Assembly: GCA_963777155.1 (NCBI GenBank)
Contig: CAVZPM010000003.1
Span: forward strand, 1 to 43,116
DNA length: 43,116 bases
Direction of reading: 5' to 3'
Origin: Candidatus Bathyarchaeota archaeon
GTDB taxonomy: Archaea; Thermoproteota; Bathyarchaeia; Bathyarchaeales; Bathycorpusculaceae
A program made the position numbers and the translations under genes. Positions 7,398 to 35,024 of this stretch are shown here, piece by piece; the stretch's first letter is position 1; each line of letters opens with the position of its first letter. The notes beneath the pieces are model-generated. The model saw nothing but the letters and a program-made list of their open reading frames with translations, had not been told where the DNA came from and did not search any database.

Positions 7398-8810
7398 TTA
7401 AGCCTTGTCGAGGTTGAATTCGTCATGGATTGCTCGGACAACGGCGACGCCATCTTTCTCTTTAACAACAAAGGAAATGTTGAGTTCTGAGCTGCCCTGT
7501 GCGATCATCCGGATGTTTATGCCTTTTTTGGCAACCGTACTGAAGATTTTTGATGCAACACCCAATGTGCCTTTCATGTTTGCGCCCATAACTGCTATGA
7601 CAGCGACGTCATCTTCTGCTGTGACTTCGCTTAATACTCCCCCCCGCTCAACCAATGCGATTTCAAGATTACTGATAGCTCTGCCTAGAAGTGACCGTTT
7701 GATTATCATTGAAATGTTGGCTTCTGAGACGGCGGTAGATATCATCATGACGTTGATGCCGTTTTTGCCTAGTACGTCGAAGACTTTAGCGTAGCTGCCT
7801 GGTGCTCCGACCATTGCTGCTCCGTTGATGTTTAGCATTGCGACGTCTTTAATCATGGCGACTGCCTTAACGGGTTTGGTTTCATTGGCTGCTGGTTCTT
7901 TTGTAATGAGTGTGCCCATATTTTCTGGGTGAGCTGTGTTGCGGATTCGGACTGGTATGTTTTCTTTAATGACTGGTCCTAGTGCTCGTGGATGCATGGC
8001 TTTGGCGCCGAAAATCGCCATTTCAGCTGCTTCCTGATAACTCAGCTGTGGCAACATCCTTGCTGCTGAAACGATTTTGGGGTCAGTAGTCATTATTCCA
8101 TCGACGTCGGTCCATATCCATACTTCATCAACCTGTAAGGCGACACCAAGAATGGTTGCGGTATAGTCCGAGCCACCGCGACCAACCGTGGTAACTATTC
8201 CGTCTTGGTTTGCGGCAATAAAACCTGTAACAACTGGAATCGTGCCCTTTTCAAACAATGGTCCTAGTCTTTCTCGGATTAGGTGTGTAGTGAAGTTCAT
8301 CAGCGGGTCGGCTTCTCCGAAGTTTGAGTCAGTGACTATGCCTGCTTCTTTGCCGGTGAAGCATTGGGTTTCAAGTTTGTGGTCTTTTATTGCACCCCAA
8401 ACGATGGGTGCTGAGAGGCGTTCTCCAAAAGAGGCAACGTAATCTTTGGATTTTGGTGTGAGTTCTCCGACGTAACATATGCCTGTTAGGACTTTTTCTA
8501 GTTCAGAGATGGTTTTTTCTGTGATTTGGGTTACTTCTTTTTGGATTTGTTTGCTTCTGATTGCGGTTGTGATGGCTTCTTGGTGTTTTTGGAGCAGTTG
8601 TTTGGTGAAGGTTTCGATGTGTTTTTCTTCACTTTTCTTTGCTTGGCATGCGGTTTCAATCAAACTGTTTGTGACGCCTGCTAACGCAGATACCACAACG
8701 GCAACTCTACAATCGTCTTTAGCATACTGATTGACTGACTTAGCTACCTGACGAATGTTTTTGCCCGTGCCTACGCTTGTTCCTCCGAACTTCATCACTA
8801 TTTTTTTCAT
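7398..8810 (-). CDS. lysC: Aspartate kinase, monofunctional with two ACT domains
   Basis: MKFGGTSV, VVSALAGVTN, GERLS, GRGGSDYTA, WTDVDG, MIAQGSSELNISFVV. Confidence 0.95.
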   Translation of the reverse strand: MKKIVMKFGGTSVGTGKNIRQVAKSVNQYAKDDCRVAVVVSALAGVTNSLIETACQAKKSEEKHIETFTKQLLQKHQEAITTAIRSKQIQKEVTQITEKTISELEKVLTGICYVGELTPKSKDYVASFGERLSAPIVWGAIKDHKLETQCFTGKEAGIVTDSNFGEADPLMNFTTHLIRERLGPLFEKGTIPVVTGFIAANQDGIVTTVGRGGSDYTATILGVALQVDEVWIWTDVDGIMTTDPKIVSAARMLPQLSYQEAAEMAIFGAKAMHPRALGPVIKENIPVRIRNTAHPENMGTLITKEPAANETKPVKAVAMIKDVAMLNINGAAMVGAPGSYAKVFDVLGKNGINVMMISTAVSEANISMIIKRSLLGRAISNLEIALVERGGVLSEVTAEDDVAVIAVMGANMKGTLGVASKIFSTVAKKGINIRMIAQGSSELNISFVVKEKDGVAVVRAIHDEFNLDKA

Positions 8811-21946: not shown

Positions 21947-23449
21947 TTGTCTAACCAAGCTAAGACTCGGACAGTCGAAGAGATTAACCAGAAAATCCGT
22001 AAAGGCGACGCTCAAGTTTTAACCGCTGAAGAGATGAAGAAGTTGGTGGAAAGCAGCGGCGTTGAAGTTGCCTTTAAAGAAGTTGATGTTGTTACGACAG
22101 GCACGTTTGGCGCGATGTGTTCTTCTGGTGCAGTTATTAACCTTGGGCATTCTGATCCGCCGATTAAGATTGAGAAGGCATGGATGAACGATGTGGAGGT
22201 TTGCCACCCAGGCGCAGCTGTGGACCTGTTTATTGGAGCCACGAACATGTCTGAGAAGTTGCCTTTCGAGTACGGCGGCGGACACGTTATTCAGGATTTG
22301 GTATCAGGAAACGAAGTTGAGCTAAGAGCTACAGCGTATGGAACTGACTGTTACCCGAGAACCTCGGTTAAAACAACCCTGACAAAGGACGATCTAAACC
22401 AGTTTTATCTGCTTAACTTCCGCAATTGCTACCAGCGCTATAACTGCGCGGTTAACAGCAGCGACGAAGTTATCTATACTTACATGAGCAAACTTTTACC
22501 CAGATTCCGAAATGCCACTTTTTCAGGCGCAGGCGAACTTAACCCGCTCATGAACGACCCAGACTACGAAACCATGGGCATGGGAACTCGCATATTCCTT
22601 GGTGGCGCACAAGGTTACATTATTGGCGAGGGAACACAGCATAGCCCTAAAAATCTCAATGGAACCCTGATGGTTAAGGGTGATGCCAAGAAGATGTCGC
22701 CTGAATTCCTACAGGGCGCCGCATTCACGGGCTATGGCACTTCCTTGTATGTTGGCTTAGGTGTTCCAATTCCTATTCTAAATGAAGGATTAGCAAAGAA
22801 AACCGCGATCCAAGACAAAGACATTTTGACCGACATCGTCGACTACAGCGTACCACGCCGCGACCGTCCCAAATTCGGACAAGTTAACTACAAAGAATTG
22901 AAATCGGGCTCAATAACCGTCAACGGCAAAAAAGTCCGAGTAAGCTCGCTCTCAAGCCTCAAGATGGCAAAGAAAGTTTCCCAGACGCTGAAATCATGGA
23001 TTGACGAGGGCAGATTCTTCTTAACTGCACCTGTTGAGCGTTTGCCAACAAACACGGTTTTTAAGGCCATGAGGCAAACAGAGGAAATTCCCTTCGTTGT
23101 CAGCGTAATGCATCCAGCAGTCACGTGTACCGAGGATGAGGAGATACAAGCTATTGCAAAACGCATCGTGACCAGATCTGTCAACCACATCGTTGTGGTG
23201 AATGAAGCTGGCAAACTACTGGGTATAGTGACTTCTTGGGATGTTACAAGGGCGATGGCTGAGGGCAAAACAGCGCTAGCAGATATAGAATCCCACAATG
23301 TAGTTACCGCTAAACCTGATGAACCACTTGAGATTGCATCTAAACGCATGGCACAAAACAACATTTCAGCCTTACCCGTGATTGATATTGAACGAAAAGT
23401 GCTTGGCATTGTCACTTCAGAAGATGTTTCCAGATTGTTAGGACGGTAA
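21947..23449 (+). CDS. L-aspartate semialdehyde sulfurtransferase (MA1821/DUF39 family, homocysteine biosynthesis) with CBS pair
   Basis: VDVVTTGTFGAMCSSGA, YGGGHVI, GTDCYPR, GEGTQH, two C-terminal CBS domains. Confidence 0.92.
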   Translation: MSNQAKTRTVEEINQKIRKGDAQVLTAEEMKKLVESSGVEVAFKEVDVVTTGTFGAMCSSGAVINLGHSDPPIKIEKAWMNDVEVCHPGAAVDLFIGATNMSEKLPFEYGGGHVIQDLVSGNEVELRATAYGTDCYPRTSVKTTLTKDDLNQFYLLNFRNCYQRYNCAVNSSDEVIYTYMSKLLPRFRNATFSGAGELNPLMNDPDYETMGMGTRIFLGGAQGYIIGEGTQHSPKNLNGTLMVKGDAKKMSPEFLQGAAFTGYGTSLYVGLGVPIPILNEGLAKKTAIQDKDILTDIVDYSVPRRDRPKFGQVNYKELKSGSITVNGKKVRVSSLSSLKMAKKVSQTLKSWIDEGRFFLTAPVERLPTNTVFKAMRQTEEIPFVVSVMHPAVTCTEDEEIQAIAKRIVTRSVNHIVVVNEAGKLLGIVTSWDVTRAMAEGKTALADIESHNVVTAKPDEPLEIASKRMAQNNISALPVIDIERKVLGIVTSEDVSRLLGR

Positions 23450-23453
23450 TTCT

Positions 23454-23888
23454 ATGGGAAGAATTCTAATAAGATTCGACGAAGATCAAATAAAAGAGCC
23501 AATAGCTTCGCAAATCATCATCGAATACAAAGTACCGATGGGAATCTTGTCTGCGCACATTAACTCGAAGGGCGGAGAAATTCTTGCTGAAGTCCCAGAT
23601 GACATACTGGAAAAAGTCGTGAACGCTTTCCGCCAACGAGGCGTCTCGGTAACCGTACCTAAATTAATCGAGGTAGACAATGACAAATGCTTCAGTTGCG
23701 GCAGCTGCATTGCACTTTGCCCAGTGGAAGCCATTGGCTTAGCAAATGACTCCTCGGTGCAGTTTGATAAGGAGAAGTGCGTTGGCAGTACCTGCAGTAT
23801 CTGTGTGGACGCGTGTCCTGCCCGTGCAATCAAATCCATCAAACAAAACAGTCTTGAGAACCCAGTTAACAGGAAAAAGAAAAGTTGA
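23454..23888 (+). CDS. NIL domain + 2x[4Fe-4S] ferredoxin (MA1822-like partner)
   Basis: CFSCGSCIALCP and CVGSTCSICVDACP motifs; directly follows the DUF39 gene. Confidence 0.88.
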   Translation: MGRILIRFDEDQIKEPIASQIIIEYKVPMGILSAHINSKGGEILAEVPDDILEKVVNAFRQRGVSVTVPKLIEVDNDKCFSCGSCIALCPVEAIGLANDSSVQFDKEKCVGSTCSICVDACPARAIKSIKQNSLENPVNRKKKS

Positions 23889-24589
23889 CCCGGGAACTTT
23901 TCAAAGAACACTTTACCCACAAAGAATCTCAGTGCACAATAATTTCTGACCAGCAAGACGCCGTACAAGCCGCTAAAGAATCCATCCAACGCAACTACCT
24001 AGAGCTTGAATTCTACGTACGCGTCAATCCCAAGTTTCTATATACATTAATGCCTGTTCCAGCGCCTGAAAAGCCACTTGTTGCGCGGTTGATGGCTGAA
24101 GCTGCACTGAAGGCGGATGTTGGTCCAATGGCAGCAGTTGCTGGTGCGATAGCTGATTTGGCTATAGAAGATATGCTTCGTTTGGGCTGCGAGGTGGCGG
24201 TTGTGGAGGACGGTGGCGAAATATCTGCAAAATCGAACCAGCCTATTGATGCGGCAGTGGCGGCAGGAGATGAACCTCTCTCTAGACGCTTCGGTTTTCG
24301 ATTGGCAGAGTTCCCAATAGGTGTTGCTACAAGCTCGGGACGTTTTAGTCATGCGCTAAGCTTTGGAGATGCGGAGGCTGCAGTTGTTTTCTGCAAGAAC
24401 GCTACTTTAGCAGATGCGGCGGCAACGGCAGTTGGTAATGTGGTTAAAGGTGAAGATGGTCAAGCTGGAATTCAAGCGGGAATCAGCAGGGGATTGTCGA
24501 TTGATGGCGTTGAAGGTGTGCTTATACTTTATAAGGGGCAGGTTGGCACATCTGGGAAAATTCCACAGATAATCAGGGTAGAACCCTGA
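23885..24589 (+). CDS. UPF0280 / ApbE-like protein (COG2122, MA1715-like)
   Basis: VGPMAAVAGAIA, VEDGGEI, ATSSG..SHALSFG, LADAAATAVGN. Confidence 0.88.
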   Translation: MTRELFKEHFTHKESQCTIISDQQDAVQAAKESIQRNYLELEFYVRVNPKFLYTLMPVPAPEKPLVARLMAEAALKADVGPMAAVAGAIADLAIEDMLRLGCEVAVVEDGGEISAKSNQPIDAAVAAGDEPLSRRFGFRLAEFPIGVATSSGRFSHALSFGDAEAAVVFCKNATLADAAATAVGNVVKGEDGQAGIQAGISRGLSIDGVEGVLILYKGQVGTSGKIPQIIRVEP

Positions 24590-24710
24590 AGATATATGGC
24601 GACCGCTTTACAATTCTGGTTAGGTATCCTATTTGGCTCTAAATTTGCCTCCAAATCGACAAACAAGGTACGCAAGATAGTTAGAACCTAGTTGAACTGT
24701 AGCCTGAATC

Positions 24711-24727
24711 CGAAACGCTTATATTTT
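24711..24727 (+). promoter_or_regulatory. Archaeal BRE + TATA box of the aromatic operon
   Basis: CGAAACGC-TTATATTTT, with the TATA box starting 45 nt upstream of the leader ATG at 24764. Confidence 0.6.
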
Positions 24728-24763
24728 CAGTGACATGAAACATTCAACAGGTTTCGAAGCACA

Positions 24764-24850
24764 ATGTTCAATGCAGAAAAAATAGCCATAGGCAATGTAG
24801 CGCCGTTCCAGAGCTTCGACTACTACTTTTATTATTACTATTTTCCTTAA
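24764..24850 (+). CDS. Putative Tyr/Phe-rich leader peptide (28 aa, MFNAEKIAIGNVAPFQSFDYYFYYYYFP)
   Basis: Open frame from ATG 24764 to TAA 24850 with 6 Tyr and 5 Phe codons, eight of them consecutive (24821-24844), ending 59 nt before the first gene of the aromatic operon. Confidence 0.8.
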   Translation: MFNAEKIAIGNVAPFQSFDYYFYYYYFP

Positions 24851-24888
24851 GCCCAGGACTGAAAAAATTTTTAAGAAAAGTTCTGGGC
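24851..24888 (+). promoter_or_regulatory. 10-bp hairpin immediately after the leader stop codon
   Basis: GCCCAGGACT (24851-24860) pairs with AGTTCTGGGC (24879-24888) with one G-U pair; the 18-nt loop contains T5. Confidence 0.65.
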
Positions 24889-24909
24889 AAAACACGGGTG
24901 TAAAAACAA

Positions 24910-26169
24910 ATGGCAAAACTTACCTCTAACCAAACCATTGTCGTTAAATTTGGCGGTTCTAGCCTATCTGACCACGAGAGACTCTTAAAAGCCGTTATGG
25001 CAGTTGTGAACGAAGCCAAGAAAGGCACAAAAATCGCTGTAGTTGTCTCCGCCATGGGAAAAACAACCGATGTTCTCATGACGACGGCAAAGAACACCTC
25101 GAATGGAAAACTATCCAAACATGAGTTAGACGACATCCTTTCTATGGGTGAACGCACAAGCGTCCGCATCTTTGCCACCGCTCTTCGGAACAACGGCGTT
25201 GACGCGTGCTACTTCGACCCTATGGACAGTAAATGGCCAATCATAACTGACGACTTGTTCCAGAACGCTAACCCAATCGTCAAGGAATGTGAGAAAAACA
25301 TCAAGGAATACATTCTTCCACTCATCCAAAAAGGCACAATACCTGTAATCGCTGGTTTCGTGGGCAAAACCAAAGACGGCAAAATCACTACTTTGGGCAG
25401 AGGAGGAAGCGACACAACTGCATTCCTGCTGGCACAGGGAATAAACGCAAACCAAGTTGTCTTGGTAACTGACGCAAATGGCATAATGTCCAGCGACCCA
25501 AAAATCATCGCCTCACCTAAACTGCTCCCAACAATAGATGTAAACACACTCGTTGGCTTGGCGGATTCAGGTGCAAAATTCATACATAGCAAAGCCCTAA
25601 AATACAAACCAAAAGACATCGATGTTAAAGTCATCAGCAACGCTCATGGCGACTTAAGCCATGCTGGCACATTAATCACTGGTGGATTAGTCAGTGAACT
25701 CGATGCGGAAATCGCTCATCCAACCCCAGTAACAGAAATCACGGTAGTTGGAAACGGTATATCTGCAAATCCCGAGGTCATCACTGAGATGGTTGAGAAA
25801 GTTAAAGAAAACTCGCTTCTGCTTGGCATGTCCATGAATACTAACTCAATAATCCTTTATGTGCCCCAGGAGAAAAACATCGATGCCCTCTTCAACCAAA
25901 TCCACAATATAACTATTAGCAACAAAGAAACCATAGCTATGGCAGTCAAAAAAGACCTTGTCTTCATAAAAACCAGCGGTGTGGGCTTGGAGGAAACGCA
26001 TGGCATCATCGGAAAAATCAGCGAAGACCTAAGAGTCAACGGCATAAACATCTCAGGTATCCTGACCATCACTTCCAGCATTTTGCTGTTTGTAGATTGG
26101 AACGAGAAAGAGAAAGCATTAAAGTTAATTAAAAACTCACTCAACAACGTTAAGGTGGGAAAAGTATGA
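24910..26169 (+). CDS. Aspartate kinase, second divergent paralog heading the aromatic operon
   Basis: VVKFGGSSL, VVSAMGKTTD, SMGER, LGRGGSDTTA, two ACT-like domains; SD-like GGGTG at 24896-24900. Confidence 0.88.
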   Translation: MAKLTSNQTIVVKFGGSSLSDHERLLKAVMAVVNEAKKGTKIAVVVSAMGKTTDVLMTTAKNTSNGKLSKHELDDILSMGERTSVRIFATALRNNGVDACYFDPMDSKWPIITDDLFQNANPIVKECEKNIKEYILPLIQKGTIPVIAGFVGKTKDGKITTLGRGGSDTTAFLLAQGINANQVVLVTDANGIMSSDPKIIASPKLLPTIDVNTLVGLADSGAKFIHSKALKYKPKDIDVKVISNAHGDLSHAGTLITGGLVSELDAEIAHPTPVTEITVVGNGISANPEVITEMVEKVKENSLLLGMSMNTNSIILYVPQEKNIDALFNQIHNITISNKETIAMAVKKDLVFIKTSGVGLEETHGIIGKISEDLRVNGINISGILTITSSILLFVDWNEKEKALKLIKNSLNNVKVGKV

Positions 26170-26957
26170 ATGAAGGCAAAACACGCAGACTAAGAAGAAT
26201 CTTGCAGCAAGACAACCGCACAGTAATCGTGCCCATGGATCACGGTGTAACCGTGGGGCCAATCCAAGGCATAACCAACATGCAAACCATAACTGACCAG
26301 CTTGTCAAAGGTGGAGTTGACGCAATCCTTGTCCACAAAGGCATCGCCAAACGCGTCAATAATGGAAACACAGGATTAATCGTTATGTTGTCAGGCATGA
26401 CAAACCTTAGCCCCAACATAAACTCAAAAGTCCAAGTATGCAGCGTTCAGGAAGCCGTACGCATCGGAGCAGATGCGGTCTCAGTGCACGTGAACGTTGG
26501 TGCACAAGACGAGGACAAAATGCTCCAGACCTTGGGCAAAGTTGCTGAGGAATGTGAAGCCTTCGGCTTACCCCTCTTAGCAATGATGTACCCGCGTGGA
26601 CCAAAAATCCCAAACGAACACGCACCTGAAGTCGTAGCTCACGCCGCTAGAATCGGCGCAGAACTTGGCGCTGACATCATTAAAACAAACTACACAGGCA
26701 ACATCGAAACCTTCAAAGCAGTAATCGAAGGTTGCCCCGTCCCAGTTGTCATCGCGGGTGGACCAAAATGCAAATCTTTAGAAGAAGTGCTTCAAACCAC
26801 AAGTGACGCCCTGAAAGCAGGTGCAGCAGGACTTTCCATCGGGAGAAATGTGTTTCAATGTGACAGTCCAACACAAATTACAAAAGCGCTTTCCGCCATC
26901 GTGCATAAAGGTGCATCTGTCGAGCAGGCGCTTAAGATTCTCGGTGAAAAACGTTGA
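26166..26957 (+). CDS. aroA': 2-amino-3,7-dideoxy-D-threo-hept-6-ulosonate synthase (MJ0400 family)
   Basis: VPMDHG, LAMMYPRG, ELGADIIKTNY, VVIAGGPK, GRNVFQ; adjacent to DHQ synthase II. Confidence 0.9.
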   Translation: MNEGKTRRLRRILQQDNRTVIVPMDHGVTVGPIQGITNMQTITDQLVKGGVDAILVHKGIAKRVNNGNTGLIVMLSGMTNLSPNINSKVQVCSVQEAVRIGADAVSVHVNVGAQDEDKMLQTLGKVAEECEAFGLPLLAMMYPRGPKIPNEHAPEVVAHAARIGAELGADIIKTNYTGNIETFKAVIEGCPVPVVIAGGPKCKSLEEVLQTTSDALKAGAAGLSIGRNVFQCDSPTQITKALSAIVHKGASVEQALKILGEKR

Positions 26958-27994
26958 AAGAGCTCTGGCTTGAAATCCCCCAGGATGCTTCACTTCAGGA
27001 AAAGGAAGGTTTGCTTAGCCTTGCCCATGAAAACGTAGATGTTATTTTGGATAGTAACCAAGCCAGTAGCCGTCAAAGAAAAATTGAACTATTTTTTCTG
27101 ACGGATTTAAGCGAGAAAAAAATTGCTCAGATAAAAAAAGAGGGCAAAAAAACAGTTTTGAGAGTGTTAATCCAGGGTAAAGAAGACGAGAACAGGGCAG
27201 CTAAAGCCGCTGAACTTGGTGTAGACTACGTTATCATAAATTGTCAAGATTGGCGGGTAATTCCGCTTGAAAACCTGATAGCTAAGGGCAGGGGGAAAAG
27301 CACTTTAATCGCTGAAGTTTCCACTGCTGAGGATGCTAAGGTGGTTTTAGAAGCGCTTGAACTTGGCACAGACGGCGTTTTGCTAAAGACCTCAAACGCA
27401 AATGAGCTGGAAAAAACAATCAAAATTGTCAAGAATCAAATGCCAAAAATGGCTCTGATCTCAGCCAAAATCTTATCCATCAAACCCATTGGTTCAGGTG
27501 CACGAGTATGCGTTGACACTGTTGACTTGATGGTTCCGGGCGAAGGCATGCTTGTCGGATGCCAATCCGCAGGGTTCTTCCTTGTTGAAGCCGAGGTCAA
27601 CGAAAACCCCTATGTGCAATCCAGACCTTTCCGCGTGAACGCTGGACCAGCCTCCCACTACACCCTAACCTCTGTACAGGGCACACGGTACCTTTCAGAG
27701 TTGAAAGCTGGAGACGAAGTCTTAATCGTTAGCCGGGAAGGCAATGTCCGAATAACGAATCTAGGCAGATCCAAAATCGAGTTCCGTCCTCTAATCCTCA
27801 TCGAAGCGCAAGCAGACAACATCAAAATAAAAACTATTCTTCAAAACGCAGAAACCATCCGCCTAGTCACCCCCAAAGCTTCCAAACCAGTAACCGAACT
27901 AAAACCTGGTGACGAAGTTCTTGTGCATTTAGCGGCTAAGGGAGGAAGACACTTCGGTATATCTGTGCCTGAAGAAACGGTGATTGAAAAGTGA
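26954..27994 (+). CDS. aroB': 3-dehydroquinate synthase II (MJ1249 family)
   Basis: WRVIPLENLIA, RVCVDT, RPFRVNAG, LQNAETIRL, GRHFG. Confidence 0.93.
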   Translation: MKELWLEIPQDASLQEKEGLLSLAHENVDVILDSNQASSRQRKIELFFLTDLSEKKIAQIKKEGKKTVLRVLIQGKEDENRAAKAAELGVDYVIINCQDWRVIPLENLIAKGRGKSTLIAEVSTAEDAKVVLEALELGTDGVLLKTSNANELEKTIKIVKNQMPKMALISAKILSIKPIGSGARVCVDTVDLMVPGEGMLVGCQSAGFFLVEAEVNENPYVQSRPFRVNAGPASHYTLTSVQGTRYLSELKAGDEVLIVSREGNVRITNLGRSKIEFRPLILIEAQADNIKIKTILQNAETIRLVTPKASKPVTELKPGDEVLVHLAAKGGRHFGISVPEETVIEK

Positions 27995-28678
27995 CCTTGA
28001 GAATCTGTGTTTCTATTCTCCCAAAAAACAATACTGAAGCTATCGATCTTATTGAGAAGGCAGAGAACGCCAAAGCAGACCTAATCGAGGTAAGGCTTGA
28101 TTGTCTTGAGGAGTCACGGAACCTCAAAGACCTCGCCAAAAGCACAAAGCTACCTTTAATCGCCACAAACAAACTCAAAACTGAGCATGGGTTCTTTTCG
28201 GGAACAGAGACTGATCGTCAACGGACACTGCTAAACGCCGCCAAAAGCGGTTTCGAATATGTAGATGTTGACTTTTCAAGCTCAAAACGATCTGAAACAG
28301 TCGGCAAAATAAAAAACTTGAATGTGAAACCAATTATCTCATACCATAAATTCGACGGCGTCCTGACCGTTTCTGCAATGGAAAAAATATTGGACGAACA
28401 AATAGCCAGCGGAGCCAGCATCTGCAAAATCGTGCTCACCGCAAAACAAATCGAAGACAACCTACCTATCCTGAGCTTTGTTTCTTTTGCCTCAACCAAA
28501 GCCAAGCTGGTCTGCTTCTGCATGGGCGAACACGGCAAAACCTCAAGGCTCCTCTCACCAGCTTTTGGCGCATACTTCACCTTCGCCTCGCTTGAGCAAG
28601 GATAGTGAAACCGCCTCAGGACAGATGAATATAAGTGAAATGAGGACTGCTTACAGTCTATTGGGGATTAAGCATTGA
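27991..28678 (+). CDS. aroD: Type I 3-dehydroquinate dehydratase; +1 frameshift at ~28597-28601
   Basis: IEVRLD, IISYHKF, FCMGEHGKTSRL; the corrected C-terminus carries TASGQ (TAPGQ-like) and its stop overlaps the aroE start. Confidence 0.9.
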
Positions 28679-29532
28679 CTATAACGGGGAAGACGCGTGT
28701 TTGCGGAGTAATCGGTGAGCCTATAGAGCACACGCTGAGCCCCCTGATGCATAATGCGGCTTTCGAAGCCCTAAAACTTGATTATGTGTTCTTAGCGTTT
28801 AGAGTTAAACCTGCAGAAGTCGAGAGCGCGGTAAACGGTATGCGAGCGCTAAACATACGTGGCTTAAACATAACGATGCCGCATAAAAGTACAGTTATCA
28901 AACACCTTGACAGAGTAGATCTTTCAGCCCAAATCGTAAACTCTGTTAACACGGTTCTCAACAAGGAAAACCTACTGTTCGGTTTCAACACAGACGGCGT
29001 TGGCGCCCTTAAGGCACTTAAAGAAAACGGTGTCGAACTCAAGGGCAGAAAAGTTCTGTTGCTCGGCGCTGGAGGAGCGGCAAGAGCCATAGCTTACACG
29101 ATGGCTAAGGAAGCAGATGAACTAGCAGTTCTCAACCGAACTGTAAAACAAGCTCAAGCACTGGCGAAATTACTTGAAAAATCGTTTAACAAGAAAATAT
29201 CTACAGGTTCACTTTCGCCAACCGACATCCAGAGCAACCTCAAAGACTCAGACATACTCATCAACGCTACCTCAGTGGGTATGAAACCCAGAGCTGAAGA
29301 AAGTCCAGTCCCATTAAAATTGCTCCGCTCCAATCTAGCCGTGATGGATATAGTCTATAATCCGCTTGAAACCAAACTGGCCAAAGAGGCTAAGGCGGCA
29401 GGTGCCCGAGTGGTGAGTGGGGTTGAGATGTTGATTTATCAGGGAGCAGCTTCGTTTGAACTCTGGACAGGGAAATCAGCGCCAATTGAAGTTATGAGGC
29501 AGGCAGCGCTTAGCCACTTGCAGAAGGTGTAA
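28675..29532 (+). CDS. aroE: Shikimate dehydrogenase
   Basis: LSPLMHN, NITMPHK, NTDG, GAGGAARA, DIVYNPLET, MLIYQG. Confidence 0.95.
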   Translation: MTITGKTRVCGVIGEPIEHTLSPLMHNAAFEALKLDYVFLAFRVKPAEVESAVNGMRALNIRGLNITMPHKSTVIKHLDRVDLSAQIVNSVNTVLNKENLLFGFNTDGVGALKALKENGVELKGRKVLLLGAGGAARAIAYTMAKEADELAVLNRTVKQAQALAKLLEKSFNKKISTGSLSPTDIQSNLKDSDILINATSVGMKPRAEESPVPLKLLRSNLAVMDIVYNPLETKLAKEAKAAGARVVSGVEMLIYQGAASFELWTGKSAPIEVMRQAALSHLQKV

Positions 29533-29534
29533 AC

Positions 29535-30404
29535 TTGGCGGGGAAAGCTACAGCTATCGCTCATGGAGCTGCAACCATCGTCAACGCGATTGCCCTAGGA
29601 AAGGGTGCAGCTTTTGGAGTTGATTTGTGGACTAAAGCCGAAGTCAAACTAACTAACGAACCAGGGATAATTGAGGCAGAGGTTGTCTCTGATCCCAAAG
29701 AAAGCACGCTCCTAATAGAAAGAACAGTTACTAGAGTTCTGCAAAGGTTCAGTTTAGAGAAGAGTTTTGGCGCAAAAATCAAGACCACTTCAAACATTCC
29801 TATAGCTAAAGGTCTAAAGAGCAGTAGTGCAGCCGCAAACGCCTCAGCCCTCGCAACCACAGCGGCACTGCATAAAAAGCTCGATGACCTGGAAATCGTC
29901 AAAATCGGAGTTGAAGCCGCTTTTGACGCCAAAGTCACGGTTACGGGTGCCTTTGATGATTCATGCGCTTCCTACTTTGGCGGTGCAGTAATAACTGATA
30001 ATCTGAACCGGGAAATAATCAAGCAGTTACCGTTACCTGAAGACTTAACGGTGCTCTTTCATGTGCCACCCCAAAAAGCCTACACCATCAACTCCAACGT
30101 AATCAGATTACAAACCGTTAAACCATTAGTCCAAATCGCCTATGAGAAAGCGTTGGAAGGCAAAATCTGGGAAGCGTTAACTCTAAACGGCCTAATTTAT
30201 TCTTCAGCACAAAATCTCAATACAACAATCGCAGTTGACGCTTTGGTTGCTGGAGCCGTGGCTGCTGGGCTTTGCGGTAAAGGACCTGCCGTTTCCACAG
30301 TGGTTCCGAATGATAAGCTCGATTCAGTTAAGGCTGCCTTACAGAGATACGAGGGCGAAATTCTGTTGGCGCATTTGAACTGTGAGAAAGCAAAGGTGCT
30401 TTAG
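29535..30404 (+). CDS. aroK: Archaeal (GHMP-family) shikimate kinase
   Basis: GAATIVNAI, IPIAKGLKSSSAAANA, TGAFDD. Confidence 0.93.
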   Translation: MAGKATAIAHGAATIVNAIALGKGAAFGVDLWTKAEVKLTNEPGIIEAEVVSDPKESTLLIERTVTRVLQRFSLEKSFGAKIKTTSNIPIAKGLKSSSAAANASALATTAALHKKLDDLEIVKIGVEAAFDAKVTVTGAFDDSCASYFGGAVITDNLNREIIKQLPLPEDLTVLFHVPPQKAYTINSNVIRLQTVKPLVQIAYEKALEGKIWEALTLNGLIYSSAQNLNTTIAVDALVAGAVAAGLCGKGPAVSTVVPNDKLDSVKAALQRYEGEILLAHLNCEKAKVL

Positions 30405-30406
30405 CA

Positions 30407-31702
30407 TTGAATGTTACCATTAAGAAAACTGGAAAATTAAGCGGCCAAGTTTGTGCACCGCCATCTAAGTCTTATACACAGCGAATGGTTATCGCCGCTG
30501 CTCTAGCCAACGGCACCTCAAAAATATCGAATCCCCTTTTATCGGAGGATACTGAAGCCACCCTTAGAGTTGTTACTGCTTTAGGCGCCAAAGCGAAGGT
30601 TGCCGAAGGTTGCTGGACTATCGACGGAACGGTGCCGCTCAAGAGCACGAAAGAGTCAATCAACTGTGGCGAGTCTGGAGCAACTTTGCGTTTTATGATT
30701 CCAGTAGCTGCGTTGGCTAATAATTCTTCTACCCTGGTGTTTCAGGGATCATTTGAGAAGCGACCCGTGGAGCCTCTATTGGCGAGCCTCAAGGAACTAG
30801 GTGCCAAAGTCCATTCTTGCAAGCTTGGCGGAAAAGACGCCGTTTTTGTGTCGGGTGGCGGCATTACTGGGGGCGAGACCTCCATAGAGGGCAATGTTAG
30901 TTCACAGTTTATTTCTGGGTTGATGTTTGCCTGTCCAATGGCTCAGGTTGATACTGAAATAATGCTTACTTCGCCGTTGGAGTCGGTGGATTACGTCAAG
31001 ATGACTCAAGCTGTTCTTGTCGAGCACGGAGTTAAAGTGCCTGTACACGAAAATCACATACATATTCCCGCAGGGCAATCATATACGCCTTCAAACGGCA
31101 GAGTTCCAGGCGATTTTTCTTCCGCTGCCTTCCTCTTAGTTGCAGCAGCTATAACTTCCTCTAAAGTCCAAATAAACAACCTTGATTACAACACCCTTCA
31201 GGGCGACAAAGCAATCATTGGCATCCTAAAGAACATGGGTGTCAATGGGAAAGTCTGCGAAAACAGTATTGAGATTGAAGGCACAGGCAGCTTCCTCAAG
31301 CCCATAGAAGTTGACGCCAAGAATATTCCTGACCTTGTCCCAGCTATAGCCATTCTAGCATGCTACGCAAAGGGTACTTCCCACATTTTTGGTGCTCACA
31401 GGCTTAGACTTAAGGAATCCGACCGTCTCGAATCGCTTTACCTTGAGTTAACAAAGATGGGTGCACAAATCACCATCAATGACGACGGCTTAATTATAGA
31501 GGGTGGTTCACCCTTACACGGCGCAGTTATAGATCCACATAACGACCACCGAATCGCCATGGCATGCGCCGTCGCAGCTTTAATTGCAGATGGAGAAACC
31601 ACAATCCAAAACGCCGAGTGCGTCAGAAAGTCTTATCCGCAGTTCTTCACTCATCTAAAACAAATAGGAGCAGATGTAGTTGGCGGGAAATTCGATAGGT
31701 AA
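30407..31702 (+). CDS. aroA: 3-phosphoshikimate 1-carboxyvinyltransferase (EPSP synthase)
   Basis: PPSKSYTQR, GESGATLRF, SSQFISGL, RLKESDR, DHRIAMA, KSYPQF. Confidence 0.95.
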   Translation: MNVTIKKTGKLSGQVCAPPSKSYTQRMVIAAALANGTSKISNPLLSEDTEATLRVVTALGAKAKVAEGCWTIDGTVPLKSTKESINCGESGATLRFMIPVAALANNSSTLVFQGSFEKRPVEPLLASLKELGAKVHSCKLGGKDAVFVSGGGITGGETSIEGNVSSQFISGLMFACPMAQVDTEIMLTSPLESVDYVKMTQAVLVEHGVKVPVHENHIHIPAGQSYTPSNGRVPGDFSSAAFLLVAAAITSSKVQINNLDYNTLQGDKAIIGILKNMGVNGKVCENSIEIEGTGSFLKPIEVDAKNIPDLVPAIAILACYAKGTSHIFGAHRLRLKESDRLESLYLELTKMGAQITINDDGLIIEGGSPLHGAVIDPHNDHRIAMACAVAALIADGETTIQNAECVRKSYPQFFTHLKQIGADVVGGKFDR

Positions 31703-32784
31703 AGAATTCGTTGTTACATCGTTTGGCGAGAGCCATGGCAAAGTTGTCGGCGTCGTTGTGGATGGTTGCCCAGCTGGTTTGCCGCTTTCTGAAGCCGATT
31801 TTCAGGAGGAGCTTGACCGCAGGATTCCCGCTGAACCCAAGATTGTTTCTGCAAGGATCGAAAAAGACAAAGCCCAAATCCTCTCAGGTGTCTTCAACGG
31901 ATTAACTACAGGTGCCCCAATCGCTTTGACGGTTGAAAACAAGGAAACCCAGTCCAGCGACTACGAAGCCATCAAGGACCTGCCAAGACCTGGACATTCA
32001 GATTATCCAGCCCGTGTTAGGTACGGCGGCTTTAACGATTACCGCGGTGGAGGACGCTTCTCAGGAAGGGTCACAGTCGCACTTATCATGGCTGGCACCA
32101 TAGCCAAAAAGCTGCTCGGCAGATATGACATTGACGTTTTAGCGTACACCCGGTCGATTAGCAAAATTAAAACCGATAAAAAATTTAGTGCTGCAGAAAT
32201 CCGCAAAAACAAAAATGCGGCTGCAACCAGATGCCCCGACTTAGCCTGCGCCGAGAAGATGGAGGAAGCCATAATCAATGCGCGAAAAGAAGGCGAGAGC
32301 CTTGGCGGTGTCATCGAATGCATTGCACTCAACATGCCTCCGGGAATCGGCGAACCGCTATTTGATTCGTTGGATGCTGATTTAGCTAAGGCAGTGTTTG
32401 CGGTTCCCGCGGTGAAAGGCGTCGAGTTTGGAGCTGGGTTCGGGGCTACAGAGTTGACGGGTTCACAGAATAACGATGCTTTCCTTCTAAAGAACGGCAA
32501 AGTTGTTACCTCAACGGAGCATGCAGGCGGAATTTTAGGCGGTTTATCCAGCGGCATGCCCATCATGATTAGTGTGGCAATTAAGCCAACACCGTCAATT
32601 GCTAAGGAACAGAAAACCGTTAACCTCGCCTCGATGGAGAACGCAGCCATAAACGTAAAGGGAAGACACGACCCTTGCGTAGTTCCTAAAGCCGTGCCCG
32701 CCATCGAAGCAGCAGTTGCTATAACCTTAGCTCGACCACATGATCCGCGCAGGCTACATACCGAAAGTCCTCAAGGAGCACTAA
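31680..32784 (+). CDS. aroC: Chorismate synthase; +1 frameshift at ~32729-32733
   Basis: FGESHG, PRPGHSD, GGGRFSGR, GGILGG, GRHDPC; the corrected end reads DHMIRAGYIPKVLKEH* (TAA 32782-32784). Confidence 0.93.
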
Positions 32785-32788
32785 ATAC

Positions 32789-33051
32789 ATGGATGAAATC
32801 CCCAAGCTAAGAAAACAGGTAGATGCAATCGACGACCAAATCCTAGCCGCCCTCTGTGAACGGGTTAAGGTTTGCAGAGCAATCGGAGAAGCCAAGAAGA
32901 AACAGGGCAAACCCGTTCGAGATGTATCCCGGGAGAATGAGGTCTTACACGAGAATCAGCAGAGAAAGCTGCTATATTTGGTTTAAATGGGAGCCAGATT
33001 GAAGCAGTTTACCGCGAAATAGTTAATATGTGCAGTGTCGTTCAAGAATAA
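32789..33051 (+). CDS. Chorismate mutase (AroQ class); two +1 insertions near 32945-32961
   Basis: LRKQVDAIDDQILAALCER...K...D.SRE; the corrected end reads EKAAIFGLNGSQIEAVYREIVNMCSVVQE* (86 aa). Confidence 0.88.
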
Positions 33052-33075
33052 AGAACTCTTAACGGGAGTCCACAA

Positions 33076-34155
33076 ATGCTCTACGAAATAAACGAGAAAG
33101 CCCTCAAACTTGAAAGTGAAGGAAAAAAGATAATTCGCTTAAACCTCGGCGACCCAGACATAGCTACGCCTCCAGAAATCGTGGAAGCTGCTTACGCTTC
33201 GATGAAGGAAGGCAAAACCAAGTATTCCTCCTCATACGGAGAGCTGAAGCTACGACAGAAAATCGCTGAGGAACACGGCGTTAAAGCAGAAAACGTCGTG
33301 ATTACGCCTGGTTCAAAATGGGCCATTTTCGCTACGATGTTTTTGATGCTTAAAAACGGCGGCAACGTAATCATCCCCACACCATACTGGACAGCTTACG
33401 ACTTAATCGCAAAGAGCTTCGGCGCTAAAACCAAGTTATTGCGGACCGAAATGGAAGATGGTTGGAAAATTGACCTTGCCGAGCTTGAACGTTTGATTGA
33501 TAAAGACACAAAAATGATTATCCTCAATAACCCAAACAACCCTACAAGCAAAGTCATAGATACAAAAACCTTGGACGGCGTCGTCGAATTAGCCAACAAA
33601 AAAGGCGTCACTATCCTTTCCGACGAAGTTTATGGGGCAATAAGCTTTGTGAAAACCAAAAGCATCCTCGACTATGAAGGCGAATGCAAACACATCCTCT
33701 CCAATGGTTTCTCAAAGACCTTCAGCATGACAGGTTGGCGCATCGGCTACCTGGTAGCCAACAAAATGTTCATCGACAACGTAACTAAACTCAACCAGAT
33801 CACAATCAACAACATACCCGTCTTCATCCAAGACGCTGCACTCAAAGGCCTAGAGCTTCACAAACAAATAGCGTCTGCCATTAAAGCTAAGTACCAACGG
33901 CGTGCAGATCTGGCAAGCACCAAACTCTCAGCGGCAGGTTTCAAATTTACCAAGCCTGAAGCGCCCTTCTACGTTTTTCCCAAGCTACCGGGTTTAGACG
34001 GCGACAAATTTACTTTAGAACTACTAGACAAAGGGGTAGCTGTGGCTCCCGGCTCATCTTTTGGAGACTATCGCGAACATTTCCGCATCAGTTTGACAGT
34101 ACCAGACGACCAAATAGAAGAGGGTCTGGATAGAATCTGCGAGGCGGCTCGATGA
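33076..34155 (+). CDS. Class I PLP aminotransferase, probably aromatic by context
   Basis: NNPNNPT, SDEVY, FSKTFSMTGWRIG; lies between chorismate mutase and tyrA. Confidence 0.88.
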   Translation: MLYEINEKALKLESEGKKIIRLNLGDPDIATPPEIVEAAYASMKEGKTKYSSSYGELKLRQKIAEEHGVKAENVVITPGSKWAIFATMFLMLKNGGNVIIPTPYWTAYDLIAKSFGAKTKLLRTEMEDGWKIDLAELERLIDKDTKMIILNNPNNPTSKVIDTKTLDGVVELANKKGVTILSDEVYGAISFVKTKSILDYEGECKHILSNGFSKTFSMTGWRIGYLVANKMFIDNVTKLNQITINNIPVFIQDAALKGLELHKQIASAIKAKYQRRADLASTKLSAAGFKFTKPEAPFYVFPKLPGLDGDKFTLELLDKGVAVAPGSSFGDYREHFRISLTVPDDQIEEGLDRICEAAR

Positions 34156-35024
34156 GGATTGCCGTAATCGGCGCAGGGAAAATGGGCGTTTGGTTCGCCA
34201 AGTTTTTTCTCTCCAAAGATTACGATGTAGTATTAGCAGACAGAAAAAAAGACAAGCTTATAGAACTTGGCGAGTTACCTGTTGATTTAACCACAAACTT
34301 CCAAGAAGCCGTTTCTGACGCTGACCAAATTTACCTATGTGTATCTATAAACGCTATCGAAGAAATCGCCAAAACCATCGGTCCTGTCTTGCATGAGGGA
34401 CAAGTGGTCATGGATATTGCCTCAATCAAGGAAGCTCCCGTTAAAACAATGCATCAGTATATCAAAGGTGCCACCGTCTTGGGTACGCACCCGGTTTTTG
34501 GGCCAGGAAGCAACGGTGTCAAACACAAAGCCTATGTTCTGACTCCAACTAACCCTGAAGAGCAAAAGTTTGCTGAAGAGTTCAAAACATGGCTGGAAAA
34601 AGAAGAAGCCCACGTTTTCGTAATGACGCCTAAGAAACATGATGAACTCATGTCAGTTGTGCTGGGGTTACCACACTTCTTAGGACTAGTTGCATGCGAA
34701 ACCTTGCTGGAACAGAAGAATTTATCTGAAACCAAAAAAGTGGCAGGTACAACCTACCGGATGTTGTTCACGTTGGCAGAAGCTACGGCGCTAGAAACCC
34801 CAGACCTTTACGCGGCAGTGCAGACGAACCTACAAGAACTGGGCAAAATCGAGGACATCTTCATGGCCAAAGCCCAAGAACTGCTCACCCTGATAAAAAA
34901 CAAAGACCAAAAAGCAATCGTCGAACGCATGGAACAACTAAAGAAGAAATTGGCATCTGTTGATAGTGACTTCGCCAAAAGCTACGATGTCATGTACAGG
35001 ATGCTTCAATCCACCGAAGAGTAG
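34152..35024 (+). CDS. tyrA: Prephenate/arogenate dehydrogenase
   Basis: GAGKMG, DIASIK, HPVFGP, HDELMSVVLGLPH. Confidence 0.93.
   Translation: MRIAVIGAGKMGVWFAKFFLSKDYDVVLADRKKDKLIELGELPVDLTTNFQEAVSDADQIYLCVSINAIEEIAKTIGPVLHEGQVVMDIASIKEAPVKTMHQYIKGATVLGTHPVFGPGSNGVKHKAYVLTPTNPEEQKFAEEFKTWLEKEEAHVFVMTPKKHDELMSVVLGLPHFLGLVACETLLEQKNLSETKKVAGTTYRMLFTLAEATALETPDLYAAVQTNLQELGKIEDIFMAKAQELLTLIKNKDQKAIVERMEQLKKKLASVDSDFAKSYDVMYRMLQSTEE

Follow-up and report, generated by a model that had tools for sequence, protein, structure and literature searches.

A candidate ribosome-read aromatic amino acid sensor at the head of an aro operon in Bathyarchaeia

Among bacteria, the sensing of amino acids through translation of a leader peptide belongs to textbook knowledge. 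In E. coli, pheL-pheA and trpL-trpE are leader-peptide transcription attenuators of aromatic operons, whereas in the catabolic tnaC-tnaA operon the leader ribosome masks the Rho loading site, the stall taking place at the stop codon and being induced by free tryptophan. For archaea, a full-text literature search returned no description of leader-peptide amino-acid sensing. A further bacterial device is presented in bioRxiv 10.1101/834739, where a ribosome stalled on a mycobacterial polycysteine ORF blocks a structure hiding the next ribosome-binding site.

The locus described here was found in a window of 43,116 nt (the whole stretch of DNA that was analysed) from a member of the Bathyarchaeia. 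It very probably constitutes a ribosome-read aromatic amino-acid sensor, that is, a leader-peptide attenuator, heading an aro operon. Its output could well be premature transcription termination, a point on which we are nearly evenly divided and lean slightly to the side of doubt.

An aromatic leader ORF at the head of the aro operon

A leader ORF with a run of aromatic codons had been claimed in an earlier note on this DNA, and this claim was confirmed by an ORF of 28 codons that is conserved in 86 distinct versions (Table 1). Its 3' part reads ...SFDYYFYYYYFP, with DYYFYYYYFP as the C-terminal residues, and 8 of its last 9 sense codons encode Tyr or Phe. The promoter block upstream was almost unchanged in all the genus-level leaders that extend that far (23 of 24), and from the established archaeal TATA-to-start spacing the transcript is predicted to start at about 24745-24750. 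The columns of the ribosome-binding region of the leader were at least 90% conserved among 64 leaders.

The genes that follow were assigned by Pfam matches to an aspartokinase-like protein, ADH synthase (DeoC family), dehydroquinate synthase II, dehydroquinase I, shikimate dehydrogenase, a GHMP-type kinase, EPSP synthase, chorismate synthase, chorismate mutase (in a broken frame), an aminotransferase and prephenate dehydrogenase, which make up a complete shikimate, chorismate and tyrosine set. An RNA-library contig (run X3, 212 nt, 4 differences) spans 24813 to 25024; therefore, the leader and the first gene share one molecule. The four RNA runs consist of assembled contigs, from which RNA starts, ends and strand are not readable, and uncovered bins, such as 24292-24619 in all four of them, carry no meaning. 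The sequence CTTTTATTATTA within the run was considered as an internal TATA-like element, against which the RNA contig beginning upstream, at 24813, argues weakly.

An ortholog of the first gene was present in 23 of the 24 other genomes of the genus, and an aromatic leader preceded all 27 orthologous loci compared with none of the 3 paralog loci. Among named public genomes, 64 of 80 loci carried an aromatic leader, in entries that were either titled Bathyarchaeia or Bathyarchaeota or mis-binned, while the 16 loci without it came from Hadarchaeales, haloarchaea and one paralog. Leader and hairpin together amounted to 86 distinct versions across Bathyarchaeia (64 in the clade of this locus and 22 in other clades), with an ORF length of 22-29 codons in 84 of the 86 and an ATG start in 85. 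Two crude scans of this genome for leaders of other amino acids gave only noise below the aro leader. A poly-Cys mini-ORF in the same genome stands before an unannotated Cys-rich ORF.

Table 1. Features of the leader region and of the downstream operon, in coordinates of the window.
Feature	Position	Strand	Details
BRE/TATA-like promoter element	24710..24727	+	CCGAAACGCTTATATTTT; read from sequence
Leader ribosome-binding region	24749..24760	+	SD-like AGGT 24749-24752; putative helix A 5' arm UCGAAGC 24754-24760
Leader ORF	24764..24850	+	28 codons, MFNAEKIAIGNVAPFQSFDYYFYYYYFP; stop TAA 24848-24850
5' arm of alternative helix 1	24807..24816	+	partner 24878-24887; present here, lineage-specific
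Putative helix A 3' arm, GCUUCGA	24813..24819	+	in codons Ser17-Phe18-Asp19; pairs with 24754-24760 in the MFE
Aromatic codon run Y Y F Y Y Y Y F	24821..24844	+	U4 at 24827-24830 and 24841-24844
Hairpin B	24851..24888	+	arms 24851-24860 and 24879-24888; 18-nt loop
First-gene start signals	24896..24912	+	SD-like GGGTG 24896-24900; ATG 24910, aspartokinase-like
Operon body	24910..35024	+	Pfam matches

Hairpin B and the pairings around it

Hairpin B is formed by GCCCAGGACU (24851-24860) and AGUUCUGGGC (24879-24888), which pair through 10 bp with one G-U, and its loop carries A6 (24862-24867) followed by T5 (24868-24872). The helix was present in the MFE and centroid structures of every fold made. 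When folded alone (24848-24896), the hairpin reached -17.2 kcal/mol with a z of -5.34, and none of 200 dinucleotide shuffles was as stable. As the full stretch 24750-24915 was of ordinary stability (z -0.25; 24800-24900, z -0.86), only the local hairpin B stands out.

The hairpin begins 0 nt past the leader stop and ends 7 nt short of GGGTG, and this geometry was shared by its relatives, with the hairpin starting between -3 and +5 nt relative to the stop codon in 85 of 86 leaders and an SD-like motif lying 0-9 nt 3' of it in 78 of 86. Against shuffles, the median z of the hairpin was -4.8 in the clade of this locus (below -2 in 64/64) and -4.3 in other clades (below -2 in 18/22). Stems of unrelated sequence occupied the equivalent position in L082, L086, L090/L092, L027/L088 and L028. 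In the alignment of the 64 leaders, hairpin B was the only structure predicted by RNAalifold, and helix A was not recovered; the two helices taken jointly were 87.9% paired, compared with 24-47% for slid controls. Within this clade, changes on both sides were seen at 6 pairs of A/B (28 of 500 shuffles had as many), and most pairs were invariant or showed a one-sided change to G-U, so that covariation is thin. Helix B had been claimed at these coordinates, and its z, its presence in all folds and its conservation bear this out.

Helix A would join the ribosome-binding region of the leader to the Ser-Phe-Asp codons just upstream of the Tyr/Phe run. The codons of its 3' arm were AGC in 60, TTC in 63 and G[AG]N in all of the 64 leaders, and because G[AG]N (Asp, Glu or Gly) always follows TTC, the pair with U is preserved. 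The opposite preference was found for Phe in the run itself, with 119 TTT and 14 TTC codons in the 64 leaders, and Tyr was written as TAT in 65% of leader codons compared with 39% in the long ORFs of this genome. The spacing between the arms of A and B was 25-34 nt in 64/64 leaders, about one ribosome footprint. Of 200 shuffles, 27 matched the helix A duplex of this locus (-11.2 kcal/mol), and within the clade the median z was -1.05. Helix A is weakly supported and was retained as a putative element on its conservation and codon evidence; its arms could instead be kept for initiation and for the peptide, and the U-ending codons could be selected for slow wobble decoding and not for U-richness.

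Two further pairings had been proposed earlier as mutually exclusive partners in a switch. Alternative helix 1, between CCAGAGCUU (24808-24816) and AAGUUCUGG (24878-24886), does form in this sequence with -13.8 kcal/mol (z -3.4, 100 shuffles), and when a ribosome was placed on the stop codon it entered the MFE and replaced B. However, it was not conserved, as its central G-C pair was kept in 9 of the 64 relatives with no covariation, its paired fraction across them equalled the shuffled mean, and a duplex of -10 kcal/mol or lower was found in only 11/64, in at least 2 sequence forms. Alternative helix 2 (24841-24850 with 24871-24879) was 74.8% paired, compared with 75.0% and 72.1% after one-column slides, and this A/U-rich, low-complexity pairing was treated as chance. 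A switch resting on these two helices is not supported, one of them being lineage-specific and the other indistinguishable from chance.

A different pairing was found in the Bathyarchaeum-like clade, in which CUGGG(C/U) of the 5' UTR matches G(C/U)CC(A/G)G after the stop, with a 6-bp core kept in 9 of 10 leaders. Duplexes between the 5' UTR and the 5' arm of the hairpin had a z below -2 in 9 of the 22 leaders outside the clade of this locus, and in several of these leaders (L026, L077, L079 and L082) the hairpin is followed by U3-5. The same pairing was dropped for the clade of this locus, where the median z was -1.04, with values below -2 in 7 of 64.

The accessibility of the downstream SD was followed by constrained partition-function folds of 79 leaders. 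Its predicted unpaired probability came to 0.43 for the free RNA, to 0.46 when a ribosome occupied the run and to 0.49 when it occupied the stop, and the difference between the stalled and the stop position was positive in 11 and negative in 30 of the 79. In the absence of a consistent change in these folds, SD masking was rejected, and the control of downstream initiation suggested by the earlier note is unsupported in this form. Folding under ribosome constraints, which the same note had advised, thus showed helix 1 forming with the ribosome at the stop but no consistent SD masking.

Termination signals, proposed mechanism and competing readings

Hairpin B is directly followed by AAAACAC and then GGGTG, with no U run after the stem, and a scan for intrinsic terminators found none on the + strand. 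These data agree with what had been read from the sequence before, namely that a classical hairpin plus U-tract terminator is absent, that helix B is followed by A residues, and that the U tracts are placed in the loop (T5) and in the codons (two U4). A terminator for the opposite strand was also rejected, the reverse complement of B having no following T run and no converging gene being present. An Rfam search (cmscan, 24300-25300, E up to 10) revealed no leader family and a chance match to H19_3, upstream and on the other strand.

In the clade of this locus, all runs of at least five T between the stop and the next gene were inside the hairpin, and none after it. Such a run was present in the loop of 44/64 leaders, starting 15-23 nt past the stop; as it was missing in 20/64, and only 5 of the 22 leaders of other clades have one, the loop run cannot be essential. 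The final 13 codons contained two or more tracts of at least U4 in 50 of 64 leaders, and the U peak of the loop lay 25-30 nt upstream of the SD.

According to PMC8716108, the archaeal polymerase terminates at U tracts with FttA/aCPSF1 and not through hairpins, and aCPSF1 binds efficiently only where two U4 tracts are present. The two U4 tracts of the run match this published minimum, although U is inherently frequent in Tyr and Phe codons. In PMC11616081, the FttA terminator is the RNA from -1 to -36, U-rich sequence being best at -30 to -36, and a mutual exclusion of ribosome and FttA is proposed. Its discussion gives the accepted view that stalling uncouples the ribosome from the polymerase and favours factor-dependent termination. 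As this is the opposite direction, the present model works only if the ribosome, while stalled, masks the binding site. FttA (TIGR03675) was detected above the cut-off in 22 of the 25 genomes of the genus; this genome, which is 90.6% complete, yielded only a partial hit (82.6 bits), located at the edge of a contig, along with a KH-less paralog. An FttA/aCPSF1 output through exposure of U tracts, as the earlier note had suggested, is compatible with all the measurements.

The best explanation as a whole, though less likely than not, is that of a sensor whose stalled ribosome would hide U tracts from FttA. What was observed comprises the ORF, the two helices with their geometry and conservation, and the codon bias; the course of events inferred from this adds a ribosome stall, a direction of response and FttA as its effector, all of them putative. 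The conserved frame consists of helix A, 8-9 Tyr/Phe codons that form a U-rich run of roughly one footprint, and hairpin B, which reaches from the leader stop to within a few bases of the next SD. When Tyr or Phe is scarce, the ribosome would stall on the run, cover its U4 tracts, open helix A and leave hairpin B folded, the U-rich RNA needed by FttA/aCPSF1 would be hidden, and RNA polymerase would continue into the operon. When both amino acids are plentiful, the ribosome would reach the stop, melt hairpin B and depart, leaving the U tracts of run and loop bare before the polymerase has reached the next ribosome-binding site, and early termination would follow. In this genome and 10 relatives (11/64), the freed 3' arm of B may then pair with 24807-16 and prolong the open state. 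The FttA/U-tract version, in the form given here, is credible but doubtful. The more specific proposition that the Tyr/Phe run doubles as the FttA/aCPSF1 site, with the hungry ribosome as antiterminator and hairpin B as a timer, is rather unlikely as it stands; the timer would close off the factor's opportunity in the interval from the leader stop to the next ribosome-binding site.

Control at the level of translation or mRNA stability, and not of transcription, is unlikely, yet far from negligible. The position of the leader ribosome might alter initiation of the aspartokinase-like gene, by a hand-over at the base of B or through an SD-hiding structure, or the ribosome might shield the single-stranded U-rich run, flanked by the two helices, from an endonuclease or a U-binding protein. 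Hairpin B does bring the leader stop and the next SD together in the same way across the 86 leaders, and the bacterial polycysteine ORFs act at the ribosome-binding site (bioRxiv 10.1101/834739). [quoted passage not shown] Less weight was given to a classical alternative-hairpin switch, in which the 3' arm of B pairs with its own 5' arm or with 24807-24816 according to the position of the ribosome, the 5' UTR of the leader pairing instead with the 5' arm of B in the sister clade. This reading, quite improbable to us, draws on the stability of helix 1 and its displacement of B with the stop occupied, on its strong occurrence in 11/64 relatives in at least two forms, and on the 5' UTR duplexes and U3-5 tails of other clades. 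It is countered by the poor conservation of helix 1 in the clade of this locus and by the A residues after B, with which neither conformer is a hairpin-plus-U terminator. In addition, the SD is free in both conformers, and B stays folded when the stall occurs at the first aromatic codons, so that the logic of the switch would be inverted if B were the off signal.

In a further, very unlikely reading, a regulatory protein such as an aromatic-responsive repressor or an RNA-binding attenuation protein would bind the inverted repeat of hairpin B as DNA or as RNA, with the ORF being incidental. The arm sequence GCCCAG...CUGGGC is shared even between clades whose first genes are 58-62% identical, which is more conservation than a plain hairpin needs. 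Nevertheless, the distance between the arms varies, the hairpin measuring 32-42 nt within the clade of this locus, no second copy of the motif was found elsewhere in the genome, so that no regulon is marked, and the element is situated about 100 nt downstream of the promoter. Distant clades, moreover, carry a hairpin of unrelated sequence at the equivalent place, and the start of the hairpin is tied to the stop codon (85/86), which points to the ribosome. The lowest probability of all was assigned to a functional aromatic micropeptide or a non-regulatory ORF, with hairpin B merely stabilising the mRNA. A C-terminal motif, SF[DEG]Y.FYY, is indeed conserved, but the N-terminal two thirds of the peptide are not kept in sequence, whereas length, frame and aromatic content are kept, the order of the aromatic residues differs between clades, and the first three codons of the motif (AGC, TTC and G[AG]N) are constrained at the nucleotide level. 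Furthermore, the ORF was found only before this operon, and it ranked first in a whole-genome scan for short ORFs rich in a single residue.

Comparison with described leaders

The locus brings to an uncultured archaeal class a candidate device with 86 versions, a strict stop-hairpin-SD geometry, one footprint between the helices and no bacterial terminator, and it offers a route to reading aromatic amino-acid regulation in organisms not yet growable. If termination by FttA at U tracts were its output, the locus would be the first archaeal case of regulated termination gated by a ribosome, and a 170-nt RNA would suffice for a direct test of whether ribosome and FttA compete as proposed. The model, if true, would represent a hairpin-independent, factor-dependent amino-acid attenuation native to archaea, in Bathyarchaeia and perhaps wider.

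As in pheL-pheA and trpL-trpE, a short ORF lies between the promoter and the first biosynthetic gene, it ends in a run of codons for the end product, and helices are placed so that the position of the ribosome selects which one forms. Unlike those leaders, this one has an archaeal host, matches no Rfam family and lacks both a hairpin-plus-U terminator and a conserved antiterminator/terminator pair, and its stop adjoins the hairpin instead of falling between segments 1 and 2. The resemblance to tnaC-tnaA concerns the model, by which a held leader ribosome would likewise hide the RNA of a termination factor and allow read-through, with a factor site that would overlap the end of the leader ORF. 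In contrast to tnaC-tnaA, the stall proposed here is at hungry Tyr/Phe codons in a biosynthetic operon, and the putative factor would be FttA acting on U-rich RNA and not Rho. According to bioRxiv 10.1101/834739, the mycobacterial polycysteine ORFs are leaderless, whereas this leader has an SD-like AGGT, and the SD that follows here is outside the hairpin and was not masked in the constrained folds. Both nevertheless place a short ORF rich in the relevant codons at the head of an operon for that amino acid, and in the mycobacterial case, by the same account, the stalling of ribosomes alters the expression of what follows with no classical terminator involved, as is proposed for the locus described here.

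The leader ORF, its operon and its relatives

The genes of the operon headed by the leader ORF make up the archaeal pathway to chorismate and tyrosine; by bacterial standards, the cognate sensor to be expected there is therefore a leader with many Tyr and Phe codons. The product of the aspartokinase-like first gene presumably supplies the ADH synthase route with aspartate semialdehyde. The chorismate mutase gene (32789-33051, + strand), located between the chorismate synthase and aminotransferase genes, seems to be frame-broken: the ORF at 32789-32986 matched positions 1-52 of the 80 in the CM_2 profile, and the remainder of a typical C-terminus continued in a different frame, starting at about 32941 and reaching a stop at 33049-33051; either an error in the assembly or a genuine frameshift may be the cause. 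The upstream neighbours (21947-24589, + strand) were a homocysteine-biosynthesis gene (HcyBio and two CBS domains), a gene for a NIL-ferredoxin, and a 234-aa ORF that gave no Pfam match.

Features of the leader region and of the operon that follows it
Feature	Position	Strand	Remarks
BRE/TATA-like element	24710-24727	+	5' of leader ORF
Helix A (predicted)	24754-24760 with 24813-24819	+	UCGAAGC with GCUUCGA
Leader ORF, 28 codons	24764-24850	+	reads MFNAEKIAIGNVAPFQSFDYYFYYYYFP; between BRE/TATA-like element and first operon gene
Run of Tyr/Phe codons	24821-24844	+	within leader ORF
Alternative helix 1	24808-24816 with 24878-24886	+	drawn in the earlier note
Alternative helix 2	24841-24850 with 24871-24879	+	drawn in the earlier note
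Helix B	24851-24860 with 24879-24888	+	10 bp
SD-like GGGTG	24896-24900	+	ATG of first gene at 24910
Aspartokinase-like first gene	24910-26169	+	AA_kinase and ACT domains (Pfam)
Operon genes 2-4		+	in order: ADH synthase (DeoC family), dehydroquinate synthase II, dehydroquinase I
Operon genes 5-8		+	in order: shikimate dehydrogenase, GHMP-type kinase, EPSP synthase, chorismate synthase
Operon 3' end		+	in order: chorismate mutase (frame broken), aminotransferase, prephenate dehydrogenase

Besides the window's own genome (assembly of 2.29 Mb, 90.6% complete), orthologs of the first gene were found in 23 of the 24 other genomes of the genus and in three more genomes of the order, the exception being G021 (65% complete), which gave a paralog-level match only. 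An aromatic leader ORF was present upstream of 27/27 orthologous loci versus 0/3 paralog loci, so that among the loci compared the leader was found at this amino-acid-kinase paralog only; a second paralog match lies at 7476-8810 on the - strand. When named public genomes were scanned, 80 loci were obtained, with the leader present in 64 (first gene 49-91% identical) and absent from 16, which corresponded to Hadarchaeales, haloarchaea and one paralog. The 64 leader-bearing loci were titled Bathyarchaeia, Bathyarchaeota or Bathycorpusculum, plus a few mis-binned names, with L093 as a doubtful case. After deduplication the set comprised 86 distinct leaders, of 22-29 codons in 84 and with an ATG start in 85. 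Across the aligned leaders the N-terminal part was free to vary, and length, frame and the aromatic tail were conserved.

Hairpin B and the predicted helix A

Helix B was present in every fold exactly as the earlier note had drawn it, starting at the base after the TAA stop codon and ending 7 nt before the SD-like motif. The U tracts were also where that note had placed them, in the loop (A6 followed by T5 at 24868-24872) and in the run (U4 at 24827-24830 and 24841-24844). No U run follows the stem, confirming that this is not a hairpin-plus-U terminator, and the leader matched no family in an Rfam search. Folded alone, hairpin B had an energy of -17.2 kcal/mol (z -5.34), equalled by none of 200 shuffles, whereas the stability of the wider region was nothing out of the ordinary (z -0.25 and -0.86 in two larger folds).

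In 85 of the 86 leaders the hairpin started between -3 and +5 nt relative to the end of the stop codon (exactly 0 in 49), and in 78 an SD-like motif followed 0-9 nt past the hairpin. Its z score against shuffles had a median of -4.8 in the 64 leaders of the window's clade, all of them below -2, and of -4.3 in the other clades, where 18 of 22 were below -2 (exceptions L028, L085, L091 and L093). Within the window's clade the stem was nearly invariant, with mainly one-sided substitutions to G-U; the structural argument therefore rests on the deeper clades (L082, L086, L090/L092, L027/L088 and L028), in which a hairpin of unrelated sequence occupies the same site. Hairpin B is the conserved core of the element, and its motif occurs only once in the window's genome. 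The loop (24862-24872) is a near-palindrome, A6T5 (AAAAAATTTTT). Loops of this clade were A-rich and then U-rich, with U most frequent 25-30 nt before the SD, and the other clades had a weaker form of this asymmetry; a run of at least five T, beginning 15-23 nt past the stop, was found in 44/64 relatives.

Just upstream of the leader ATG, an SD-like AGGT is followed by the 5' arm of helix A, which is complementary to codons Ser17-Phe18-Asp19, immediately before the first Tyr codon. This pairing appeared in the MFE structure of the window and of many relatives, and each arm was at least 90% conserved, unlike the flanking sequence. Jointly, A and B had 87.9% of cells paired in the 64 leaders, compared to 24-47% on sliding. 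The Ser codon of the arm was AGC in 60/64 and the Phe codon TTC in 63/64, against 119 TTT and 14 TTC further down the run, and the next codon was G[AG]N without exception (Asp 39, Glu 16, Gly 9), preserving the pairing with U. Such a choice of codons points to selection acting on the RNA. Helix A was not among the RNAalifold predictions for the 64 leaders, and its duplex energy was ordinary for the arm size (equalled by 27/200 shuffles in the window); the predicted pairing is probably genuine. In 64/64 leaders, 25-34 nt lay between A (3' arm) and B (5' arm), about one ribosome footprint. A ribosome early in the run would have to open A and spare B, and a ribosome that has reached the last codons of the run or the stop codon would have to open B and spare A.

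Competing helices across clades

The earlier note had also proposed two helices that compete with B. Alternative helix 1 does exist in the window (-13.8 kcal/mol, z -3.4), and it displaced B in the MFE when a ribosome footprint was placed on the stop codon, but it was not conserved among the 64 leaders: 75.5% of cells were paired, equal to the shuffled mean, with one two-sided change, its central G-C pair was retained in 9/64, and the duplex reached -10 kcal/mol in 11/64 (median -5.6). Alternative helix 2, A/U-rich and weak, had 74.8% of cells paired versus 75.0% and 72.1% after a shift of one column. The alignment led to rejection of the proposed ALTERNATIVES (alternatives 1 and 2) as conserved elements. 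Therefore, the switch cannot depend on these two helices, the former of which may be a lineage-specific reinforcement. The observation in the earlier note is partly confirmed: helix B, the features around it and the U tracts stand, but the two alternatives are not conserved. Its interpretation is partly supported.

In a Bathyarchaeum-like sister clade (10 leaders), the partner of the 5' UTR is instead the 5' arm of B, through a 6-bp core conserved in 9/10; this duplex had z < -2 in 9 of the 22 leaders outside the window's clade. Mutually exclusive helices therefore exist in the family, in a form unlike that drawn originally. The motif CUGGG(C/U), just 5' of the leader ATG in L026, L072, L074, L075, L077, L078, L079, L083 and L087, is identical to the 3' arm of the hairpin after the stop codon and can pair with that hairpin's 5' arm. 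Downstream of several sister-clade hairpins stand U3-5 and, after it, GGAG; the arrangement there is closer to a classical antiterminator plus terminator. In the MFE of L091 (765-968), the hairpin after the stop codon has its 5' arm paired with the Phe codons themselves (UUUCUUCAGC), and in L090 and L092 a helix of 14-15 bp joins codons 3-7 to Ser-Gly-Tyr-Trp-Phe codons. The same leader seems to be wired differently by different clades.

Outside the window, contig C11 of the genome (72813-72851, - strand) carries a 12-codon ORF, MGRSCCCYCCCN, with six Cys codons, preceded by a TATA-like TTTTATTTTT and followed 70 nt downstream by a Cys-rich ORF (167 aa, family unknown). The 12-codon ORF could be a leader of the cysteine type; its stop codon has no hairpin next to it.

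Candidate output and known systems

The earlier note had suggested control of downstream initiation as one possible output. Masking of the SD was rejected, as the SD lies outside B and was not consistently masked in the folds; its predicted unpaired probability (79 leaders) was 0.43 for the free RNA, 0.46 when a ribosome occupied the run and 0.49 when it occupied the stop codon. The most likely candidate for the output is FttA/aCPSF1-type termination at the leader U tracts, gated by the ribosome. PMC8716108 describes archaeal termination by U tracts and FttA/aCPSF1, with a minimum of two U4 tracts for efficient aCPSF1 binding. According to PMC11616081, an FttA terminator extends over RNA positions -1 to -36, U-rich sequence being optimal between -30 and -36, and ribosome and FttA are proposed to be mutually exclusive on the polymerase. 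The run has two U4 tracts here and at least two in 50/64 relatives. Tyr codons were TAT in 65% of cases in the leaders versus 39% genome-wide, and Phe codons TTT in 89% in the run versus 47%, although U-ending codons may serve slow decoding instead. FttA was above the family cut-off in 22/25 genomes of the genus; the window's assembly has only a fragment at a contig edge.

With termination of this type, scarcity of Tyr or Phe would stall the ribosome on hungry codons, masking the U tracts and leaving B folded, and the polymerase would get to the next ribosome-binding site. Without a stall, the ribosome would run through, melt B at the stop codon and leave, and transcription would end on bare U-rich RNA behind a polymerase that no ribosome has yet rejoined. 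B would additionally hold the untranslated spacer in structured form, which would account for the tight fit between stop codon and SD. Against the model, some lineages do without the T run of the loop, and a stalled ribosome is usually expected to favour factor-dependent termination. An RNA-library contig from run X3 (212 nt, 4 differences) spans 24813-25024, and leader and first gene are therefore on one molecule, though contigs cannot show RNA ends.

No archaeal leader-peptide attenuator was found described in full-text literature searches, and the terms 'attenuation', 'attenuator' and 'leader peptide' were absent from a review of archaeal transcription-translation coupling (PMC8116511). With its short Tyr/Phe-codon ORF, the device would work like a bacterial leader-peptide attenuator, two defining features of which, alternative hairpins and an intrinsic terminator, are missing here. 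A nearest functional analogue would be the tnaC/Rho type, that is, factor-dependent attenuation gated by the leader ribosome. The other would be the polycysteine short ORFs of mycobacteria (bioRxiv 10.1101/834739).
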